Program-made: the position numbers and the translations under genes | Notes under the pieces: model-generated | Database searches by the model: none | Told to the model about the DNA's origin: nothing | The model's input: the letters and a program-made list of their open reading frames with translations, nothing else | DNA from: a virus | Lineage: Duplodnaviria; Caudoviricetes | Reading direction: 5' to 3' (one strand) | Virus record (IMG/VR): IMGVR_UViG_3300049201_000008 | Coordinates: 1-64,000 of that record | Length of the DNA stretch: 64,000 nucleotides | In this document: one piece after another, positions 3,922 through 48,438 of the stretch | Numbering within the stretch: position 1 is the stretch's first letter | How the letters are laid out: the number at the start of each line of letters is the position of its first letter

Positions 3922-5574
3922 TTAACCTAAGCCTGCCTGCGATATCCCTGCCTGCTGCAGCGCAAGAGCACCCTCACCGATGTTCTTCGCTGTGGTGGCG
4001 CCTGCATTGGCAATCGCCGCAGCCTGGACGAGATCGGCCTGTTCCGCGTTCTGCTGGTCGATCTCAGCCTGTGCGTCGTCATCGACAAACCAGTCAGGTT
4101 TGCCGCCGGCACCGCGGACGGCGTCTTTCGTGGCCTTCTTGAAGTCGAAACCCTGAACGATGCTCTGATCCTGTGTCGCGCTGACGCCAGCCGCCACGAT
4201 CTGGACGGATTCCTGAAACGCCGAGACCGTCTGCCGGCCTTCGAGCGTGTTCAGCGGGCCTTCGAACTGGAATGTGAGATCACGCTCCCTCAATGCATCC
4301 GGCGGTGGATCGAACGATTTGTTTGCCAGCATGAGATCAAACGTGACCTCAAGCATCTTGAGGTGATATTCGCTCTCGATCGGCCCGAAGAACGGGAGTG
4401 CCGCCCTGCGGTATTCGTCAAGCCGGACCTGCGTTTCAAACGCCGTCATCTCGCGGGCATTCGGCAGCATCAGCTTGTTGATGAGGAACGATTCCGCGAT
4501 CAGATTGCGGATATCCTGCCGCATTTCAACGCCGAACCCGACATTGCCGCCCTCGTTGAGGACTTGCATGACGTCCTGGAGTTTCTCTCCGTTCAGATCC
4601 ACCATCGTGAAGCCGCCGGCATAGAGATTGATGTCGTTCTTGAAGACGTCGCCGGAGCCGACAGTCGGCGGATCGACGGCCTTTTCCCCCTGTTCGAGGA
4701 GGATTCGCGCCATCTCCTGCAGCATCCGTCCATCAGCGAGACAATTGATAGAGGCCGGGGAAAACCCGATCGAGATGTTCGACAGCGAGCGCCACCGCGG
4801 CACGATGTAATTGAATACCGGGGTGCCGCCTTGGCCGAGAATTGTATTGTGCTCGCAGGCCACATAGAGCGAGACGATCTTGTTGCGGCCGAACTTGCGC
4901 CGCATCGCCTTGTCGTCGTTGTACATGTCCTCGACAGGCATCAGGATATGGCGGAGCTTGAACTGTTTGTCCGGCTCCTTCTCGCAGCAGTTCTTGATTT
5001 CCTGCGGGCAGGTTGTCGGCCACCGCTTCTTGATGTTTCGCGCCGACATCATCAGATTGCGTTGGTGGTGGTCGATCTGGCCGTCAGCGTCCATCATCCA
5101 GGCATTGTCGCGTGGATGCCATGCCTTGTAGAGCAGCCCGTTGCGGTCCTTGTTTTCCTCGACGGAGACCACTGGGTTGCCAACAGACACCCAGTCGTGA
5201 TCGGCCTCGATGGTGCAATTCACAAAGTTGGCGCGCGGGCTGTACATCCCCTTGCGCATCTTGTGCTTGGCGCTGTCGAACCAAGCCATGTTCGACGGGT
5301 CTTCGTCTGTCTCCTCATCGCCAGTGGAGACCTTGAACCAGTCACCTTGACGAAGGACGGCGTGCGGCATGTTGCCGAGGGTTTCGCGGGCCTGCACCAT
5401 GAACGAGTCCATGAGGTTGCCCTGGAAATCCTCACCGGGCGAAAGCGTCGTGGTGTAGTCGGCTCGAAGCGGATGGCAGAGCTCGCATATCTCCTGCCGC
5501 AGATCGTTCCACGGCTGAAGCTTTGAGAAAAGGCCGTCGCCGATCCGCACAAGTTCCTTGGCTCTGCTGTCCAT
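3922..5574 (-). CDS. Portal (head-tail connector) protein, T7 gp8/Bbp21-like
   Basis: 550 aa; motifs PRW..S...GFSPA...LAD.RMLQ, KAVDPP, MTAFE...R.DE typical of podophage portals. Confidence 0.9.
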   Translation of the reverse strand: MDSRAKELVRIGDGLFSKLQPWNDLRQEICELCHPLRADYTTTLSPGEDFQGNLMDSFMVQARETLGNMPHAVLRQGDWFKVSTGDEETDEDPSNMAWFDSAKHKMRKGMYSPRANFVNCTIEADHDWVSVGNPVVSVEENKDRNGLLYKAWHPRDNAWMMDADGQIDHHQRNLMMSARNIKKRWPTTCPQEIKNCCEKEPDKQFKLRHILMPVEDMYNDDKAMRRKFGRNKIVSLYVACEHNTILGQGGTPVFNYIVPRWRSLSNISIGFSPASINCLADGRMLQEMARILLEQGEKAVDPPTVGSGDVFKNDINLYAGGFTMVDLNGEKLQDVMQVLNEGGNVGFGVEMRQDIRNLIAESFLINKLMLPNAREMTAFETQVRLDEYRRAALPFFGPIESEYHLKMLEVTFDLMLANKSFDPPPDALRERDLTFQFEGPLNTLEGRQTVSAFQESVQIVAAGVSATQDQSIVQGFDFKKATKDAVRGAGGKPDWFVDDDAQAEIDQQNAEQADLVQAAAIANAGATTAKNIGEGALALQQAGISQAGLG

Positions 5575-6218: not shown

Positions 6219-7574
6219 TCAGTGCCGCATCCGTTTCTTGAGGGCCGCATGGCCCAAATTCACCTTTGGTGGCATGCGGGCCATTTCCCCGAAATCGCGC
6301 TTTGTCATACCGGGGAAGAGCGAAGCCAGTCCCCAGATCATTGCGTCTGCCCGATCAGGCGATTTCGTGCCGATGTAGCCGGCCGTTGTCATCGCTTCGA
6401 GTTGGGCTTCAAGTTTCTCAAAGCGGCCGACAAGCGAGACTTTTTGCTGCTCGAATAGCGCCGCGATCGGTTCGGCGCGGGCTATCTTGCCACGGCTCGC
6501 CTTTACCTCCCTGAATGGGACCGGCGTTTGAATGAGCCGATCGCTATCCGAAGCAGCGGAGCGGACGATTTCAGCAACCATCGCGCCGCCGAAGTTGGTC
6601 TCCGCCACCACAGCATCGGCCTGATGCCGGTCAAAGGCAGCAACGACCGCTTTGCCCCACATAGCCGGAGCCATGCGTCCCGAGAGGTCTTCGAGGATAT
6701 ACCCCCTGCCATCTTTACCCAAGCCGCAAACGATAATCCCGACTTCGTCCGATCTGGTGTCTTCCTCGCCAGCCACGCCAGAAGGATCAACAGCAATAAC
6801 GATGCGAACCATCTCAGGCACTTCGCCATCAAGGATTCGCTGCTGGTCGAGCAGTTCAAGAGACCAGAGCGCGCTTTCAGACGTGTCCGCGAACTGACCG
6901 AGCCAGAACCGGCGGCGCTGGGCCTCTGGGAGATTTTGAAGCTCCTCTAGCGTTTCCTTCGGCAGGTTTTCCTCGTTATCCTGCGGGTTCATCAGGATAG
7001 CGTTGTAATTGAACGGGTTCGGAATTTGCGTCTTGCGGTCAGGATCGCGCTTGTTGAGGAAAAGCTGATATGTCCAATGCGCCATCCCCGGAGGGTTGGC
7101 GTCGTAGTACATTTTCAGCCTAAGCGGCGTCTTCTGCGCAAGGCGCGTCACCGCCATGTTGCGCGATGCCCACGGGATTTGCGAGCACTCGTTCAGATAG
7201 ATGGTGGCATATTCCTGCCCGAGAATTTTTTCCGTCCGCTCCTTGTCGTCCAGTCCGCCAAACCAGATTTCCGACCCGTTCGGAAGCGTCAGATACCAGT
7301 CCGTTTTGTCCAGTTTCGACTTCTCGGCTACGCCAGGGAAACATAGTTCCATGACCTTCGGCAGCGTGTCGAGGATGACGGACGATTTGATATGGTTGAA
7401 CCGATAGCGTAGCGCGGCATGACGGCTCTTGTGGGCCAAGCCACGAATGATCAGTGCCCGCATAAAGCCGAACGTCTTGCCGGAGCGGGCGCCGCCGTAA
7501 GCCATGATGTGCGTTGCGTCAGAGCCGCAGAGTTCAACCTGCTTCTGCTGGCGCTTCGTCAGACTGAACGTCAT
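6219..7574 (-). CDS. terL: Terminase large subunit
   Basis: 451 aa; Walker A GGARSGKT, Walker B-like IYLNE, nuclease AVDPS...DEVG and PDRADA. Confidence 0.95.
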   Translation of the reverse strand: MTFSLTKRQQKQVELCGSDATHIMAYGGARSGKTFGFMRALIIRGLAHKSRHAALRYRFNHIKSSVILDTLPKVMELCFPGVAEKSKLDKTDWYLTLPNGSEIWFGGLDDKERTEKILGQEYATIYLNECSQIPWASRNMAVTRLAQKTPLRLKMYYDANPPGMAHWTYQLFLNKRDPDRKTQIPNPFNYNAILMNPQDNEENLPKETLEELQNLPEAQRRRFWLGQFADTSESALWSLELLDQQRILDGEVPEMVRIVIAVDPSGVAGEEDTRSDEVGIIVCGLGKDGRGYILEDLSGRMAPAMWGKAVVAAFDRHQADAVVAETNFGGAMVAEIVRSAASDSDRLIQTPVPFREVKASRGKIARAEPIAALFEQQKVSLVGRFEKLEAQLEAMTTAGYIGTKSPDRADAMIWGLASLFPGMTKRDFGEMARMPPKVNLGHAALKKRMRH

Positions 7575-12971: not shown

Positions 12972-13709
12972 TTATGCCGCCTGCTGCTCTTTGCGCTTTC
13001 GTTCGCGAGCGCGGCGCTGATCGTTTCTCATCTTGTCCGGGTTGAACCGGCTTGCCTTCCAGAACTCGCCCGTGAAGTAGTTCGGATCGCTCCAACTAAA
13101 TTCGCGCTGTTCGTCTAGGATGTCCTCTTTATCGCCGAAATCAGGGTACTCTTGCAAGGTGCAAGATTGCAGCTTTCGTATATCTGCCAACGTGTTGCGA
13201 AGAAAAATTGCTTCGATGCATGAAATGGCGACATCTTTTCTGATCGCCCCGGTGTTTCGGTGGATGCCTTCGACATCCTTGCACCACCTGCTAAACGAGA
13301 TACGCTTCATCACCGTCTCCATGGAGAACAGTTCGCAAATCTTGCCCTTATGGTTGGCCTGCGAATTGAATCTAGTCTCGACTGCCTTCGCGGTCCGCAA
13401 GACTTTGGCCTCCGACATAGCCCACGCCCACAGGCAGCGGCGATCTCGTTCGCGCGGCACGAAGGTCATCAACTCGTTGCATAGTTCCCATTGAGAGATT
13501 TCGGCCTTGCGGAGGCGGGTAGTGCGATGAGACAAGAAGTCGGCGCGCTCTTCCTGATAGCGTTCCGCTCCCCATCCGTTGACGTCGATCTCGCTGTGGT
13601 AATAGGGGACAGCTTGCGCTTTCAGTCGAGCCGGCCTTGCTGTGTCTGGCAGGCGCGCGTCTGTTTCCGCAGCGGAAATAAATAGCTCTTCGATCTGTTC
13701 CGGGGTCAC
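12972..13709 (-). CDS. Putative late transcriptional regulator (Q-like position; DUF6362-like N-terminus)
   Basis: 245 aa; IEELFISAAETDARLPD N-terminus; last early-middle gene before a ~700-nt leader and the late genes. Confidence 0.5.
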   Translation of the reverse strand: MTPEQIEELFISAAETDARLPDTARPARLKAQAVPYYHSEIDVNGWGAERYQEERADFLSHRTTRLRKAEISQWELCNELMTFVPRERDRRCLWAWAMSEAKVLRTAKAVETRFNSQANHKGKICELFSMETVMKRISFSRWCKDVEGIHRNTGAIRKDVAISCIEAIFLRNTLADIRKLQSCTLQEYPDFGDKEDILDEQREFSWSDPNYFTGEFWKASRFNPDKMRNDQRRARERKRKEQQAA

Positions 13710-13712
13710 GTC

Positions 13713-14132
13713 TCAAGCCTCCAAGAGTTCTGGCTGGCCATATACGCGGCGAAGCCGTTCATAAACCATTCCACTCAGCGCGTCCCGCCGCTTCACTGTG
13801 CCGCGAAGACCCTGTGAGACATAATGTAGGTATCCCACGGGTATTTTGTCCCACACAGAAAGCCACAGGCTCGCATCACGCTCGATTTCGTCTCGGAATG
13901 CCATCACCATGTCCGAGCACATCCAAAGGCCAATTTCATCGACAACAGCCTTATTGTTGGAGGTATCCGCCAACGTCCGAAGCACTAATCTCATATGTTC
14001 TTCACCGTATCGATCGATAATCCGGCGGATGGTGTTGATTGCGCGCGTCTGCCCGAGACGGGGATAGGCTGTGCCTTCGATGGCTTCTATCCCCACCTCT
14101 GCACATAGGGCCGAGACACGCGGATCAATCAC
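13713..14132 (-). CDS. Conserved hypothetical protein of rhizobial phages
   Basis: GTG start after GAGGGAG; MIDPRVSALC...GQTRAINTIRRII; 139 aa. Confidence 0.7.
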   Translation of the reverse strand: MIDPRVSALCAEVGIEAIEGTAYPRLGQTRAINTIRRIIDRYGEEHMRLVLRTLADTSNNKAVVDEIGLWMCSDMVMAFRDEIERDASLWLSVWDKIPVGYLHYVSQGLRGTVKRRDALSGMVYERLRRVYGQPELLEA

Positions 14133-14145
14133 GCTTTCGGCTCCC

Positions 14146-14679
14146 TCACGTGTCGATAGACTCAAATCGCTTCGGCTGCTCTTCCTGCTGCGGCTTGTCG
14201 GGCAACACCTTGGGCTGAGGAAGGGCGTAGAACTCCGGCGGTTTTTTCTTGTCCCAGCTAAATTCGAACGGCGGCATTTTGAGCCGGAGATCGCCCTTTT
14301 TCCCGTTCTGCTGTTCGTCAAGAAGCTCTTGGAGTTTGTCCGACATCTTCTTATCCCAAGGAAGCCGGTAATGTCGGGGGACGTCGCCGGTATCCAGCAG
14401 CACGTAGATTCCCTCGTTGACAACCATCTTGGAGCCGATCACCTGCCAGTCGCCGGGAGGGGCATTGAGGCCGGCAATCAATGGAACCGGCCATCCCAAG
14501 GTAAACGACAGGGCGGCGACAACAACAGGAGCGGCCACGAGGAACCCCGCCACAGAAATCCATCGTGTCTTTGTCTCCCGCCTTGACCAGATGGCAAACA
14601 TTGCCAGCAGCCCACAGACGAAGATGAGGATCATTGCCGGGGCAAACACTTCATTCGGAACCATATTCATCATGTGCAT
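14146..14679 (-). CDS. Membrane protein with Pro/Lys-rich C-terminus (third subunit of ExbB-like module)
   Basis: Two N-terminal TM helices, soluble domain, PPEFYALPQPKVLPDKP tail; coupled to upstream gene. Confidence 0.75.
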   Translation of the reverse strand: MHMMNMVPNEVFAPAMILIFVCGLLAMFAIWSRRETKTRWISVAGFLVAAPVVVAALSFTLGWPVPLIAGLNAPPGDWQVIGSKMVVNEGIYVLLDTGDVPRHYRLPWDKKMSDKLQELLDEQQNGKKGDLRLKMPPFEFSWDKKKPPEFYALPQPKVLPDKPQQEEQPKRFESIDT

Positions 14680-15284
14680 TACCCCTTCTTTGCCGAGCGC
14701 AGCGGGCGGTAGATTGAATTGAGAGAGGCGTCATCGATCTTGCCGCCAGCGTCGATCTTGAACGAAACGGCGGTGCGTTCCTGCCCCGGCTTGGACAGCA
14801 CAACCCTTGTCGTCAGAAGGATTTTGGTGGCGGATTTGTTATCCTTCTCGCCCGTGCCTGGGTTGATCGAGACCTCAACGTCGACGGGAACCGGGAATAC
14901 CTTGCAGGAATAGCAGTGCAGATTCAGCCAGTAAGTCCCCGGCACAATGCCGCGCGTGTATGCGTTCTCGAAGTTGAATTTCATGGCGTCTGGCCAGTTG
15001 CCGAGATCATCGCGCAATAGGTTCCAGAGGACGCCGCCTTTGTTAGAATAGCCTATAGGAACAGGCTCGCCCGGACCCGTCACCCACAAGTCGACGTCGG
15101 TGTTTCCCTCCGGCCACGTCACGTTGACCATGAGGTTGCCGGGAGGCTCCGCTTGGGCTGTGGCCTTGGCTGTCTCCACTTTGATCAGCAGAAAGACGAT
15201 AACGACCATGAAGACAAGGCCGATGATCGTGTTCATCAGGATGTCGCGATAGGCGACGGAATTGACTTCGTCGGCGCTCTTCAT
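14679..15284 (-). CDS. MotB/ExbD-like single-TM protein with YfaP/DUF2135-like periplasmic domain
   Basis: AYRDILMNTIIGLVFMVVIVFLLI (Asp at TM start); VTWP..NTDVDLWVTGP...RDD...NFEN. Confidence 0.7.
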   Translation of the reverse strand: MKSADEVNSVAYRDILMNTIIGLVFMVVIVFLLIKVETAKATAQAEPPGNLMVNVTWPEGNTDVDLWVTGPGEPVPIGYSNKGGVLWNLLRDDLGNWPDAMKFNFENAYTRGIVPGTYWLNLHCYSCKVFPVPVDVEVSINPGTGEKDNKSATKILLTTRVVLSKPGQERTAVSFKIDAGGKIDDASLNSIYRPLRSAKKG

Positions 15285-15286
15285 GG

Positions 15287-15832
15287 CTATTCACCCGCGA
15301 CCGCATGCCAGACATTCGCCGTTTCGGCGTCTCTTTCGAGCAGAGATGTCGCCGTTGTCAAAATCCGATAGTTGATTAACACCCAAAGTCCAAGTGCCGT
15401 GCCAATAAGGGTGTTGTTGAAGGCAAATTTCATCCCCGTCATCATCCCGCCGATCGCGAGCATCGCCTGATCCGCTCCGCCGGACAGATCGATCTTGGAT
15501 ACTGCCATGGTGAAACCGACGATATTGCCGATCAGCCCCAAGGTGACCAGCCAACTGCCGATGTCTCCGATATGGGCGTTCTTGATGGCGATCTTGGATG
15601 CGTCGAAAGTGCCATCTCTCTTAAGCGTATTGAGGCCCTTGCTGACCTTCGATGCTCGAATGAACGTAGATACCAGCCCGACCGCAAACAGCGCCAGCAT
15701 CGCCAACGGCAGTTCCATGGCACTGTTGTCGAGAAGCTTTTGAACGTAGCCCGATGCAAATCCCCACGCAACCAGCGCGAAGGCGAGCGCGTTCAGGATC
15801 ATCAGGCGATAGAGGAGCAAATTCTTGAGCAT
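15287..15832 (-). CDS. MotA/TolQ/ExbB proton-channel family protein
   Basis: 181 aa, about 4 TM; LGLIGNIVGF and GMKFAFNNTLIG match the ExbB channel helices; AAGGAG 7 nt upstream of ATG. Confidence 0.8.
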   Translation of the reverse strand: MLKNLLLYRLMILNALAFALVAWGFASGYVQKLLDNSAMELPLAMLALFAVGLVSTFIRASKVSKGLNTLKRDGTFDASKIAIKNAHIGDIGSWLVTLGLIGNIVGFTMAVSKIDLSGGADQAMLAIGGMMTGMKFAFNNTLIGTALGLWVLINYRILTTATSLLERDAETANVWHAVAGE

Positions 15833-15913
15833 GCGCATTCTCCTTTTCCTATGGCCTGTTGATCTCAACCGCCGCCCAGCAGGTCCGCCCTGGGTAAGTG
15901 GCTACTCGTTTAC

Positions 15914-16285
15914 TTAAATTCCGGCCGCCCTCTCGATTGCCTGCCGTTTGCAGCGCGCCCACAGGATACCGTCTGCGGCGTCGATCCTGTTCAGCCGCGC
16001 CCCATCGCTGGTCCTTTTCTCCATACTCCGCAGCCTTGCCCGCCGCCGCTTTAATGCCCGTGGCACAAGTCTCCAATGGTCCTCACAGAGCCATTCCATG
16101 CCGAGTCGAAGGAGATCACCCTTGCGGTCACCCCGCGTGCGGCGGCACAGAGGGACGACACAAGCAATCCGTCGTTCTTCCTCGATCACCGTCGCAACGC
16201 CGCATCCATCGCATTGATAGGTGTATAGCCATGGTGTGCGCCGGAAATGGCCGCGATGGCAAAGGCCGCAGATGTGATCGGTCAT
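15914..16285 (-). CDS. Cys-rich (Zn-binding) hypothetical protein
   Basis: CGLC, CDGC, C..PLC, CEDHW motifs. Confidence 0.6.
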   Translation of the reverse strand: MTDHICGLCHRGHFRRTPWLYTYQCDGCGVATVIEEERRIACVVPLCRRTRGDRKGDLLRLGMEWLCEDHWRLVPRALKRRRARLRSMEKRTSDGARLNRIDAADGILWARCKRQAIERAAGI

Positions 16286-16548
16286 TGCCGCAGTCCTGGT
16301 GCGTCCATAATGTTGGACTTCTCATCAACGACGAGCATGATACCGTCCTTCGTCATCGCCGATTTCACAACGCATTGACGAGCGTGATCCGCGTCGGTGA
16401 TGAGGGCTGAGCCGCCCAGCCGCACCAACAAGCCGGCGATGACGCGCTGCATGAACTCTGGAAGCTGCATAAGTTCGTTTAGTTCGTTGCCAGTCGGCTC
16501 ACGGCGCATGTTGCTTGCCACGGCTCTACGATCCTTCCTGTTTGTCAT
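16282..16548 (-). CDS. Hypothetical protein
   Basis: MTNRKDRR, 88 aa; AAGGA RBS. Confidence 0.6.
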   Translation of the reverse strand: MTNRKDRRAVASNMRREPTGNELNELMQLPEFMQRVIAGLLVRLGGSALITDADHARQCVVKSAMTKDGIMLVVDEKSNIMDAPGLRQ

Positions 16549-16829
16549 TGCCCTGTCCTTTCGATTGATACCTTCGCGAAACTCGCCTCTCCAGCCCATC
16601 CACTATCGCCGCCGCTGCTCTCGTAGAGCGCATAGGCTTCGGGAAGGTATTGATCGGCCCATGAACGGCCATTGCCGAGCGAGGTGCCGAGAAAGGCGTT
16701 ATCGTCCAACATCGCCAGAGTCTCCGCTATCGGCAGCAGCTTGGCGCGCTCTGCATCGGTGAAGGATTCGACTGGTCGCCATCCTTCTGCGGGTTTGGGA
16801 ATGCGGTAGCCGGGAGGGCGGCGCGTCAT
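16545..16829 (-). CDS. Hypothetical protein
   Basis: 94 aa, coupled overlaps. Confidence 0.55.
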   Translation of the reverse strand: MTRRPPGYRIPKPAEGWRPVESFTDAERAKLLPIAETLAMLDDNAFLGTSLGNGRSWADQYLPEAYALYESSGGDSGWAGEASFAKVSIERTGQ

Positions 16830-17308
16830 TGGCTGGACCTCTTCGTCTCAACCTGTCGGACAGCCCATAAACAAGTAGTATGGTCGCGACCGCCAAACAT
16901 CCGCCCCAACTGCGGAAAACTGACATGTGGAAATTTCTGTTTGATTTCCCAGATCAGCAGTTGGCGAGCGGCGACTACGCTCCGGCCACGGTATGGCCCA
17001 ACCATATCCTGATAGGTGAACCCGAGTTCCTTCGCCCGACGCTTCAAGTACCGCACTGGCGATGTTTGCTGTCGCTGCTCCGCATGCCACGCATCGATGT
17101 GGGCGGTGAATTCGATATCGCCACGCTTCCATAGCGGCATTGGGGTGGGCTTGGGCCGTTCGATAATGCGAGCCACGACGATGACAGGCTCCGCAGGCGG
17201 TGGGGCGTCCGTTGCTGGCACCTTTACGCCCATTAGCCTTCTACGGCATTCTGCATGGGCTGCCCGCTGTGCTGCTTCGATAGGGCCGATGGGTTGGGGA
17301 TGGATCAT
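16826..17308 (-). CDS. DnaA C-terminal-like HTH domain protein
   Basis: RSVVAARQLLIW....PHVSFPQLGRMFGGRDHTTCLWAVR. Confidence 0.85.
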   Translation of the reverse strand: MIHPQPIGPIEAAQRAAHAECRRRLMGVKVPATDAPPPAEPVIVVARIIERPKPTPMPLWKRGDIEFTAHIDAWHAEQRQQTSPVRYLKRRAKELGFTYQDMVGPYRGRSVVAARQLLIWEIKQKFPHVSFPQLGRMFGGRDHTTCLWAVRQVETKRSSQ

Positions 17309-18117
17309 TTGCGTCCGCCTTTCTTCCGCGCCGGAACTTCAAGGCCAGCCTCAATCATTGCGGTCCTCATCCGATCGGCCCCGTCTTCGATAACGGCCAA
17401 GATGTTTGCAGGCCCATGCCAGGATTCCGCCAAGTTCAGGGAGTGGGCGACTTTGACGGCCTTGATGATCCGATCCGTCTCGTACGAATAGAGCCGATCG
17501 CCGAAGTTCTCCCTGATGGCGTCGATCAGCTTCGTTGCGCCGTCGCGGAATTCCCGCTTGTCGTTGATGCGGCGCTCGACTTCCTGCTCAATGCCCTTGT
17601 CCCAATCGGCTTTAGCTGCCCGCACAGCGTTGCTGATGGCGGCGGCGTCCTGTTCACCGGCTCGACGCACCAACGCAGCCACAAAGCCAGCCGTGAGCGG
17701 TTCTGGCGTCAATAGCGCCGGGTTCTTCCTGCATCTGAGAGCGCCGTCCTTGAATTCGTACAAGCCCCAAGTCACCGGCAGTTCGTCGGCCTTCACCATT
17801 CCAGCCGGAGCCGCCAGTGACCAGCGGTGGCAATGCTTGTATATGGGCAGAGACTTCGCTGGATTCTTCATCTCATTGAGGAAATCGCCGCGCGAAACCT
17901 TCACCTCGAATCCATGGACTTCATGCCCGGTGGATGGCCAGACGCCGATAGTCACGGCATCGGCATAGGTTTTGATTTTGAAACCGGTATCGTTCGAGAC
18001 TTCGAAGAATGTCTGATAGGCCGGCGCGTCGAAGAGACGCTTGATGGCGCGTTTGATATCGGCGGATGTCACCTTCGCGGGAGGCGATTCTGAGATTTTG
18101 GCTTCGATGGTGTTCAT
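17305..18117 (-). CDS. MmcB-like PD-(D/E)XK nuclease domain protein
   Basis: FFEVS...YADAV..GVWPS...VHGFEVKVSRGDFLNE; 270 aa from MNTIEAK. Confidence 0.7.
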   Translation of the reverse strand: MNTIEAKISESPPAKVTSADIKRAIKRLFDAPAYQTFFEVSNDTGFKIKTYADAVTIGVWPSTGHEVHGFEVKVSRGDFLNEMKNPAKSLPIYKHCHRWSLAAPAGMVKADELPVTWGLYEFKDGALRCRKNPALLTPEPLTAGFVAALVRRAGEQDAAAISNAVRAAKADWDKGIEQEVERRINDKREFRDGATKLIDAIRENFGDRLYSYETDRIIKAVKVAHSLNLAESWHGPANILAVIEDGADRMRTAMIEAGLEVPARKKGGRK

Positions 18118-18629
18118 GCTTCCGCCCTCGCTTCGGCTGCGTCGAAGTTTGGCCGCAGGCAGCAATCCAATTCCGCGCGCGTCGTGGCAAAATCCTTATG
18201 CAGGATCGCAACCCCGCCTTCCTTCTGCCAGCACGTCGTATTCCGTTCGAAATCATCAATCAGGACGTCGCCAGGTGCATGCATGAACAGCGGCTTGTTG
18301 TGTCCGCCCATGACAGGGAGAACGATGCATTTGGTGGATAGATGCTCTCGCACCCATGCCCGTTTCTGACGCGCTGCATTGGCGTAATTCGTCCGTGGGC
18401 AGGCGGTGAGGATGATCGGATCAAGCCATGATATCCCGTCGAAGAACACCTTGGCCCCCTCGCATGGCGGCATGTCGCGGAAATAGGACGGATGGGAATT
18501 GATCTGCACCCACATGTCATCATCGGCAAGGGACTTGTGATCAAGGCCGAAGACTGCCGGGAAATGAGCATCGAAGTCGGCCATGACGCCGTCCAAGTCC
18601 AGATAGAGTTTGGGGAAATTCGTTGTCAT
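18114..18629 (-). CDS. HAD-family 5'(3')-deoxyribonucleotidase
   Basis: LYLDLDGVMADF motif I, ILTACP motif II, VLIDDF motif IV. Confidence 0.85.
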   Translation of the reverse strand: MTTNFPKLYLDLDGVMADFDAHFPAVFGLDHKSLADDDMWVQINSHPSYFRDMPPCEGAKVFFDGISWLDPIILTACPRTNYANAARQKRAWVREHLSTKCIVLPVMGGHNKPLFMHAPGDVLIDDFERNTTCWQKEGGVAILHKDFATTRAELDCCLRPNFDAAEARAEA

Positions 18630-47279: not shown

Positions 47280-47611
47280 TGGATAATGTTTTTACCCCCG
47301 CCACGCTGGCGGAACGCTGGGATTGCTCCGAACGTCACGTCCGCAATCTCATCAACAAAGGAAAGCTTGGATGCTTCAAGCTCGGTGGTAAACTGGTGCG
47401 CATCCGGCAAAGCGACGTGGAGAAATTCGAATGTCAGAGTGGCGGGTTACCAGACTTAACGGAGAATTCTGCCTCACCTGGGACGAAACCAGTCCTGACG
47501 GACATCCGGTCCGAAGGCGCTATCGTCTTGGAACTTCCGACGCGCGAGAGGCGCAAGCCCGTGCCGCGGCTCGATATTCGGAAATCACCAGGCCAGCCGG
47601 AAAAACCGTAA
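47279..47611 (+). CDS. xis: Excisionase (HTH_17/MerR-like)
   Basis: FTPATLAERWDCSERHVRNLINKGKLGCFKLGGKLVRIR; upstream of and overlapping integrase. Confidence 0.85.
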   Translation: MDNVFTPATLAERWDCSERHVRNLINKGKLGCFKLGGKLVRIRQSDVEKFECQSGGLPDLTENSASPGTKPVLTDIRSEGAIVLELPTRERRKPVPRLDIRKSPGQPEKP

Positions 47612-48438
47612 AGGCACTTTGGGACGGCTATTGCAAGGACAAGGCCGGGCAATCCGTCATCACCACCATGGGATATACGTGGAAGGCATTGGAGCCTGTC
47701 TTCGGCCATCTGGACGGCGATGCGATCACATTGGAGGATTGCCGCAGCTACACAAAGATGCGCCGCGCCGCCAAGAAATCGGACGGTTCGATCTGGACGG
47801 AACTTGGCCACCTTCGTTCTGTGCTCGTATGGGCGAAGAATAACAAGATCATCGCCGAGGCACCGAAAATCGAACGCCCGACGAAGCCCGAGCCGAAGGA
47901 TAGATATCTGACACGGGAGGAAATTGCCCGCCTCATGGATCATGCGAAAGTCCCGCATATCCGCTTGGCCATCCTTTTGCTGATATCCACGGGCGCGAGA
48001 TCGGCCGCAGCTCTCGAACTGACTTGGGATCGCGTCGACTTCGAAAGGGGAATTATCCAACTCCGGAATCGCTTTGACGGCAGTCGCCGGAAGGGGCGCG
48101 CGACAGTTCCGATGAATGACGGTTTGCGCGCCGAATTGGAAATAGCCAAGAAAGCCGCCTTGACGAACTATGTCATCGAATGGGCTGGCGACAAGGTGAA
48201 GTCGATCAGAAAGGGAATTGAATCAGCCGCGAAAGCCGCGGGCCTTGACGAGGTGTCACCTCACGTCTTCCGGCATAGCGCTGCTGTCTGGCTTGTCGAA
48301 GACGGGCATTCGTTTGAGGAGGTGGCGCAATATCTGGGCCACAACGACGTGAAAATCACCTTCAAAGTGTACGGAAGATTTTCTCCGACGCATCTTCGGA
48401 GCCTTGCAAACACCTTGGAAATCAAACGCGGCGCATAG
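47431..48438 (+). CDS. int: Tyrosine integrase
   Basis: STGAR, HVFRH, LGH, Y catalytic residues; 335 aa. Confidence 0.95.
   Translation: MSEWRVTRLNGEFCLTWDETSPDGHPVRRRYRLGTSDAREAQARAAARYSEITRPAGKTVKALWDGYCKDKAGQSVITTMGYTWKALEPVFGHLDGDAITLEDCRSYTKMRRAAKKSDGSIWTELGHLRSVLVWAKNNKIIAEAPKIERPTKPEPKDRYLTREEIARLMDHAKVPHIRLAILLLISTGARSAAALELTWDRVDFERGIIQLRNRFDGSRRKGRATVPMNDGLRAELEIAKKAALTNYVIEWAGDKVKSIRKGIESAAKAAGLDEVSPHVFRHSAAVWLVEDGHSFEEVAQYLGHNDVKITFKVYGRFSPTHLRSLANTLEIKRGA

Follow-up and report, generated by a model that had tools for sequence, protein, structure and literature searches.

Three adjacent genes for membrane proteins, carried by a virus of the Caudoviricetes, raise the question of which machine they encode and of what it would do for a phage. 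The genes, named here A, B and C, lie in the window, i.e. the whole stretch of 64,000 nucleotides analysed in this study, which corresponds to the first 64 kb of the IMG/VR virus record IMGVR_UViG_3300049201_000008 (80,023 b in total). A preliminary description of the locus, made from the sequence alone, had proposed a phage-encoded motor module related to MotA/ExbB and MotB/ExbD. Ion-driven motors of this class power flagella, the Ton and Tol systems, gliding and Zorya. Our analysis leads us to favour, with a probability of about 0.62, a reading in which the three products assemble in the inner membrane into one ion-driven complex of the MotA/ExbB/TolQ kind, undescribed and minimal in its make-up. 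The genes and the parts of their products on which this reading turns are the following.

15287..15838, minus strand: gene A, coding for a MotA/ExbB/TolQ-family protein of 181-183 amino acids
15524..15526, minus strand: codon of Asn103 of A, aligned with the pore-ring Thr145 of TolQ
15410..15412, minus strand: codon of Thr141 of A, aligned with the pore-ring Thr178 of TolQ and retained
14679..15284, minus strand: gene B, coding for a protein of 201 amino acids with one membrane helix and a periplasmic beta-sandwich
15243..15245, minus strand: codon of Asp14 of B, the candidate ion-binding carboxylate
14715..15149, minus strand: periplasmic domain of B (residues 46-190), a DUF2135/YfaP-like and TerD-like beta-sandwich
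14146..14679, minus strand: gene C, coding for a protein of 177 amino acids with a helical hairpin, a periplasmic domain and a Pro/Lys-rich tail
14500..14655, minus strand: helical hairpin of C (residues 9-60), with a basic W-x-R-R loop (consensus W.RR)
14215..14472, minus strand: periplasmic OB-fold-like (oligonucleotide/oligosaccharide-binding) barrel of C (residues 70-155), strand-strand-strand-helix-strand-strand

The three open reading frames (ORFs) were confirmed at these positions, all on the minus strand and in the same orientation, in agreement with the three coupled membrane genes of the preliminary description. Gene A starts after an AAGGAG box with two in-frame ATG codons, at 15838 and 15832. 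Its stop codon is separated by 2 nt from the ATG of B, as read from the sequence, and at the following junction the TAA of B and the ATG of C share letters in a 1-nt overlap (TAATG). On its 3' side, C ends with a TGA, followed by 15 nt containing GGGAG and by the GTG start of the next gene.

Homologous loci were collected through B alone: 76 viral contigs, 80 species genomes (the best of at least 588) and a small number of further loci. The 165 loci were then searched with iterated profiles for each of the three proteins. In 158 of these, viral and chromosomal, the three genes lie on one strand in the order A-B-C, and most of the exceptions sit at contig ends, so that the co-occurrence implied by a three-gene module is borne out. 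No fourth gene is conserved across the 165 loci. The trio genes of the genome loci overlap or abut, and those of the phage loci often have homing endonuclease genes or small ORFs inserted between them. Specifically, HNH or Seg-like homing endonuclease genes are found between B and C in several phages (e.g. L002:10606-11106 and L183:4068-4610, where the number after L designates the locus), and the insertion breaks the usual B/C overlap.

Gene A provides the clearest link to known motors. Its product matches the Pfam family MotA_ExbB (PF01618) over residues 84-165 with 23.5 bits, above the cut-off of 22.9, and the same match was recovered by a whole-record search. When a family profile built from 42 homologues (alignment A2) was compared with the PDB, MotA was the best solved match (8gqy, E 1.1e-7), followed by ZorA (2e-6), TolQ (7e-5), PomA (2e-3) and ExbB (8e-3); the PomA match covers residues 17-155 of A, i.e. 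all four of the helices that hydropathy and loop charges predict in a MotA-like layout. An hhalign comparison with E. coli TolQ (Prob 78%, E 1.8e-5) extended over the last two helices and took in the two pore-ring Thr: Asn103 of A (LGLIG-N) is paired with Thr145, Thr141 with Thr178, and position 136 with Glu173. The solved structure of TolQRA shows Thr145 and Thr178 of TolQ as a polar ring beside the essential Asp23 of TolR (PMC12215075). All together, these sequence comparisons assign A to the MotA/ExbB/TolQ family. A differs from MotA in the lack of the large cytoplasmic, torque-generating domain, whose place is taken by a basic cytoplasmic loop of about 30 residues, absent in turn from some phage copies. 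It also departs from the Tol/Ton ring proteins, since it combines four helices in a MotA-like layout with no cytoplasmic domain.

The preliminary description had pointed to Asn substitutions at the usually Thr-lined positions of two segments of A, LGLIGNIVG and AFNNTLIG. The first of these stands, as Asn103 replaces a pore-ring Thr; the second does not, because AFNNTLIG keeps the ring Thr141, and both of its Asn residues fall at variable positions. Among 75 viral loci, 27 have Asn at position 103, as against 0 of 80 genome loci, 77 of which have Thr, and on the tree the Asn of the viral copies corresponds to several changes. At position 141, Thr is found in 67/75 viral and 77/80 genome loci. 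In one metagenome contig (L005:5164-7020), A was called as a 618-residue fusion with a CitMHS/TrkA_C transporter; judging from the sequence of the related locus L006, which carries a free-standing A of 184 residues, this fusion is probably a gene-calling artefact.

The product of gene B has the single N-terminal membrane helix of a MotB/ExbD/TolR-type partner. Its model (predicted local distance difference test score, pLDDT, 78) shows a long helix at residues 4-43, a short linker and the strands of a beta-sandwich at residues 50-189, with no plug-like segment between helix and domain. The AYRD motif ahead of a single transmembrane segment, noted in the preliminary description, is present and is followed by a single hydrophobic helix. 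The pair Arg13-Asp14 lies at the cytoplasmic end of this helix in all of the 80 genome loci, and Asp14 is kept, besides these 80/80, in 65 of the 74 informative viral loci, so that the conservation expected of an essential membrane Asp is indeed observed. A single helix with an essential-looking Asp is what TolR and ExbD possess (PMC12215075); the position of the Asp at the cytoplasmic helix end is that of MotB, and MotB_plug is matched weakly by 2 of 72 B members.

The nine viral loci in which Asp14 is missing are of particular value for this argument. They belong to one clade (L027, L031-L035, L037, L044 and L067, all IMG/VR contigs), in which Asp14 is replaced by Gly, Ala or Thr (FR-G/A/T-Y) and C is present. 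In 9/9 of them A carries a Glu at position 137, in the core of helix 4, one turn from Thr141 and adjoining the position equivalent to Glu173 of TolQ. Among 145 Asp-bearing trios, no acidic residue was found in A at positions 134-151. A further Asp-less B, found among the 50% representatives (L219), belongs to a separate lineage and is accompanied by a Glu at position 135 of A. This carboxylate swap between B and A, a new line of evidence read from the alignments, supports an ion path shared by the two proteins. The distant trio of L219 (L219:1828-3783; NCBI GCA_043756865.1, a 65.7-kb contig) has a ComEC gene (DUF4131 plus Competence) just upstream and genes for a trypsin-like protease and an NfeD/S49 protease just downstream. 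A second apparent coupling, between Asn103 of A and Asn18 of B, was rejected: the association in the raw counts (19/28 vs 7/121) was not supported after correction for relatedness (independent pairs, median p 1).

The periplasmic domain of B is very strongly conserved, with a mean column identity of 42-53%, compared to 30% for A and 28% for C, and with D63, D65, R91, D92, D93, D99, N104 and E106 invariant. The B family counts 553 matches at 90% clustering and 2,305 cluster representatives at 50% identity among 1.84 billion proteins, nearly all of 180-215 residues. Pfam detected neither an OmpA nor an ExbD domain in B, in line with the preliminary statement that the domain is not OmpA; B is thus set apart from MotB, with its OmpA-like peptidoglycan-binding domain, and, being DUF2135/TerD-like, from TolR and ExbD. 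The window protein has no Pfam match to DUF2135 (PF09906). This family is, nevertheless, the commonest weak match among 72 B relatives (7/72, best E 0.003), and in two Atlas searches DUF2135 clusters came first among the named neighbours of B (TM score 0.46; feature score 0.89). The B profile matched a single YfaP with an E value of 0.0026, and the comparison of the B profile (A4) with a profile of 26 YfaP proteins gave Prob 73% and E 3e-5 over 72 columns; residues 46-127 of B align with YfaP 138-213 and the core W...TD.DL.V..P.GE is common to both. The periplasmic domain of B is therefore likely, by profile comparison, to be a distant relative of DUF2135/YfaP that lies below the Pfam membership threshold, and the YfaP/DUF2135-like label given in the preliminary description holds with that restriction. 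YfaP itself, which belongs to the yfaA-yfaP alpha-2-macroglobulin operon of E. coli, carries no MotB-like helix as a fusion, nor does its gene adjoin a MotA-like one. The DUF2135 Pfam model had no matches in 151 alphaproteobacterial genomes. We know of no function for DUF2135, and no paper naming it was found in the literature.

Among solved structures, the B domain model is closest to TerD (3ibz, Z 7.4, root-mean-square deviation 3.9, 128 aligned; 2kxt, Z 6.2), and Pfam TerD is matched weakly by 1 of the 72 B members. With Z scores under 8, these comparisons are suggestive of TerD-type calcium-binding sandwiches as the nearest solved folds, and the B sandwich would probably bind cations. Foldseek against the PDB yielded no match with E under 0.001 for either B or C, a BFVD structure search gave nothing clear for B, and the B and C profiles had no meaningful match among PDB sequences; the exhaustive structure-match lists for both proteins were filled by their long helices. 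A CxxC motif (C124, C127) was considered as a defining feature of B and discarded, being invariant among close relatives and absent from most chromosomal copies (present in 6/80).

The third protein, C, is modelled with high confidence (pLDDT 90.6) and shows helices at residues 9-30 and 37-60, so that the two transmembrane segments and the Pro/Lys-rich tail announced by the preliminary description are confirmed both in the model and in the alignment (A3). According to the positive-inside rule, both ends of the hairpin would face the periplasm. For residues 70-155, every one of the top structural matches is an OB fold: the eIF5A C-domain (Z 6.7, root-mean-square deviation 3.4, 74 aligned), HIN domains and Shiga toxin B. 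The tail, of about 30 residues and rich in Pro, Lys and Gln, contains a partly conserved motif (P.F...PQP..P.K); in the model it lies against the barrel. The C helices contain no His or SHLS motif, and neither TonB_C nor TolA was matched in Pfam among 50 C members. A weak match to DUF4131 of ComEC appeared in 16 of these 50 (best E 0.0066, below the cut-off), and the N-terminal module of ComEC has the same architecture as C, a hairpin followed by an OB fold. Kinship with ComEC was nonetheless rejected, as the profile comparison aligns 27 hairpin columns only (E 0.002) and not the OB part; the likeness is architectural only. A complex prediction for the periplasmic domains of B and C scored 0.01, compared to a mark of 0.32, and is uninformative either way.

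In five small genomes (L173-L177, 1.4-2.1 Mb), C is directly followed by a conserved gene for a predicted lipoprotein of about 240 residues (e.g. L174:8192-8983 and L176:8828-9616), with a lipobox L-x-G/A-C and no Pfam family. The lipoprotein may represent a fourth component peculiar to this lineage. Its gene is followed in L176 and L177 by one for an APH-type kinase, and L176 also has an RNase H gene.

In the complex that we favour, A would form the outer ring, enclosing the membrane helix of B, with five A around two B by analogy with the known motors, and the assembly would rotate. Ions, presumably protons, would pass between Asp14 of B and the polar ring of A (position 103 and Thr141), where position 103 is Asn in the phage of the window and Thr in its chromosomal relatives. 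As A has no cytoplasmic domain and the periplasmic domains of B and C both lie next to the membrane, the output would have to be periplasmic: work would be delivered in the periplasm or the membrane through the DUF2135/TerD-like sandwich of B, held close to the membrane by its short linker. C, an obligatory third protein with a two-helix anchor and an OB-fold-like barrel, would bind the A/B core and share in this output. Flagellar stators differ here, as the trio includes such a third obligatory protein and has no linkage to flagellar genes. As to the job, our best guess is that the trio acts on the infected cell's envelope in a way that depends on the proton motive force, e.g. by excluding or handling what passes through the periplasm, or by stabilising the envelope until lysis.

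Several observations weigh against this reading. A clears its Pfam cut-off by 0.6 bits, and B and C reach the threshold of no Pfam, PHROG, NCBIfam or PADLOC family. Compared by hhalign, B showed no detectable similarity to E. coli TolR (25 columns, E 0.034), nor did C show any to TolA (E 0.19), and all the fold matches of B and C have Z scores under 8. The Glu137 clade is a single lineage and thus counts as one evolutionary event. Moreover, two of the Asp-less lineages have the relocated carboxylate and two do not; because these two, L216 and L218, have no compensating acid in A, some members of the family may not conduct ions classically. Finally, the results give no direct evidence for the roles named in the preliminary description (superinfection exclusion, modulation of the proton motive force, interference with host Ton, Tol or Zorya), nor for any other biological role or a time of expression.

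The trio is not confined to phages. B was detected in 53 of 401 sampled alphaproteobacterial genomes (about 13%; the class that holds Azospirillum), usually in single copy. Chromosomal contexts were read from called genes, and in Azospirillum tabaci, in a Geminicoccaceae metagenome-assembled genome and in a 212-kb metagenome contig the trio lies in ordinary chromosomal surroundings without phage genes; its neighbours are housekeeping genes and not defence islands. The Mesorhizobium copies lie inside prophages. The preliminary view of a phage-encoded device is therefore incomplete, the same genes forming chromosomal operons of an ordinary kind outside phage contexts as well. The tree of B keeps viral copies largely apart from genomic ones (7 label changes vs 50.8 in shuffles), and the B of the window falls within an all-viral clade of 18. 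Because of this separation, and of the position of the window copy, the phage trio is, by its phylogeny, no recent capture and belongs to old phage-specific lineages. In Azospirillum tabaci, two B copies lie 23 kb apart on one contig (G001:C34:335998-336606 and 359344-359928; L178, L179 and L180); by a crude ORF call, C is beside one and A beside the other, and the better-read copy adjoins genes for an Amidase_3 wall amidase and a BON-domain protein.

Among cultured temperate rhizobiophages, the trio was found in Rhizobium phage 16-3, as p038, p040 and p042, and further carriers are the Sinorhizobium phages NV1.1.1 and AP-16-3 and the Rhizobium phages RHph_X2_25 and RHph_TM3_3_14B; in all of them the genes are annotated as hypothetical. 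These phages share with the window the same trio in the same early-region position, with B proteins 36-43% identical. They differ in a smaller A (about 138 residues), in the small ORFs or homing endonuclease genes placed between the trio genes, and in a gene for a trypsin-like periplasmic protease just upstream. A gene of this kind, coding for a trypsin-like, probably periplasmic serine protease (Trypsin_2, E 2.9e-18), was seen in 27 of the 76 viral loci just ahead of the trio, e.g. L182:2163-3062 (p036 of phage 16-3), L183:2110-2757 and L023:2981-3688; near the window trio, none was found within the searched interval 12972-18165.

The surroundings of the trio in the window are defined by the following genes.

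3922-5574, minus strand: portal/adaptor
6219-7574, minus strand: large terminase
16826-17308, minus strand: DnaA C-terminal helix-turn-helix protein of 160 residues (Bac_DnaA_C, E 9e-13)
47431-48438, plus strand: tyrosine integrase

The large terminase, the portal/adaptor and the integrase establish the viral nature of the record and, because an integrase gene is present, its gene content marks it as a temperate phage or an excised prophage. A promoter scan found no promoter-like site around the trio, and the five terminator-like matches there do not exceed the number in shuffled sequence. Having no promoter or terminator of its own, the trio is embedded in a long leftward operon, with DNA-metabolism genes on one side and late/packaging genes on the other; the operon runs from DNA methyltransferases, a deoxyribonucleotidase and the DnaA-type protein to the large terminase and portal/adaptor. 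Three small ORFs separate the trio from the gene of the Bac_DnaA_C protein, about 1 kb upstream in the same operon. This position fits early or middle expression, and the phage trio would probably be expressed during lytic growth. The lytic early-middle operon of the preliminary description is accordingly retained for its early or middle position and corrected for its purely lytic character, which the integrase contradicts. No recognisable lysis genes adjoin the trio in the window, and a megablast of the trio region against 50,697 phage records gave no match.

These contexts also bear on what else the trio could be. A has no cytoplasmic domain to push against and B has no plug-like segment, and both features would suit a gated ion leak, as opposed to a motor that performs work. 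In such a leak the A/B channel would admit protons and so lower or sense the membrane potential, with the periplasmic domains of B and C as gate or sensor. The very strong conservation of the B domain, however, suggests a specific partner or ligand over a simple gate. The phage-specific change of Thr103 to Asn in the pore ring points in the direction of a leak as well, and the carboxylate carried by A in one clade would mean one site per ring subunit; a phage could use such a device, for example, for timing lysis or for taking over host energetics. Yet the window trio is not beside recognisable lysis genes, and a constitutive leak would be costly in the housekeeping contexts of the chromosomal copies. 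We regard this explanation as rather unlikely.

The three-gene layout with a Pro-rich third protein recalls TolQ-TolR-TolA and ExbB-ExbD-TonB, and with TolQ among the closest solved relatives of A, a Tol/Ton-like force transducer has to be weighed, in which C would act as TolA or TonB and link the motor to a partner in the outer membrane or peptidoglycan, the phage copy perhaps competing with the host Tol/Ton. C, however, has two helices and an OB-like barrel in place of a helix with an SHLS-type His, it has neither a TonB nor a TolA C-terminal domain, and its comparison with TolA was negative; its short tail, packed on the barrel, could not span the periplasm, and the domain of B is not of the ExbD/TolR type. 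The lipoprotein gene that follows C in the small-genome lineage recalls Pal, but neither Pal/TolB nor a TonB-dependent receptor is linked to the trio, and this explanation appears quite improbable. A Zorya-like role in defence or counter-defence, as a membrane sensor of envelope perturbation or as a decoy for the host ZorAB, is very improbable indeed, for although the trio shares with ZorA-ZorB a MotA/ExbB-type ring protein and a phage-related biology, the weak ZorA matches of A (PADLOC E 4.5e-5; NCBIfam 26 bits vs a cut-off of 100) are the sole defence-model matches, A with its 181 residues has no long ZorA tail, B and C have no PADLOC match and B no ZorB-type wall-binding domain, in none of the 165 loci is the trio joined by a gene for a ZorC/ZorD-like or other effector, and the chromosomal neighbours are those of housekeeping regions.

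Returning to the preferred reading of one minimal ion-driven complex, a bolder form of it can be put forward tentatively, as a possibility that we hold to be less likely than its negation. The trio would then be a third, hitherto unrecognised branch of the ion-driven 5:2 machines with a wholly periplasmic output, made of a DUF2135-like cation-binding sandwich on the axle and of a membrane-anchored OB-fold partner, and it would have been retained and retuned by alphaproteobacterial temperate phages for an envelope task specific to phages and carried out during infection, such as keeping out the DNA of rival phages or maintaining the envelope until lysis. If this were true, the axle-to-ring carboxylate variants would demonstrate that either partner can bear the coupling site of such motors.

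In conclusion, our data identify the trio as a real, conserved and undescribed variant of the MotA/ExbB motor kind, which resembles Mot, Tol/Ton and Zorya at the A/B core only. A literature search yielded no description of it, in agreement with the preliminary remark that no function had been described for this triad in phages; a 2025 survey groups the non-flagellar relatives as 'generic ion transporters' (PMC12505986). The trio represents a widespread motor relative without the known output parts, as it has neither a cytoplasmic nor a wall-binding domain and lacks TonB and TolA. Carriers accessible at the bench exist in phage 16-3 of Sinorhizobium meliloti and in cultivable Azospirillum species, and the natural exchange of a carboxylate between B and A offers a ready test of how ion binding and movement are coupled in this motor class. 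For the phages themselves, the existence of old lineages with altered pore residues points to a role in infection.

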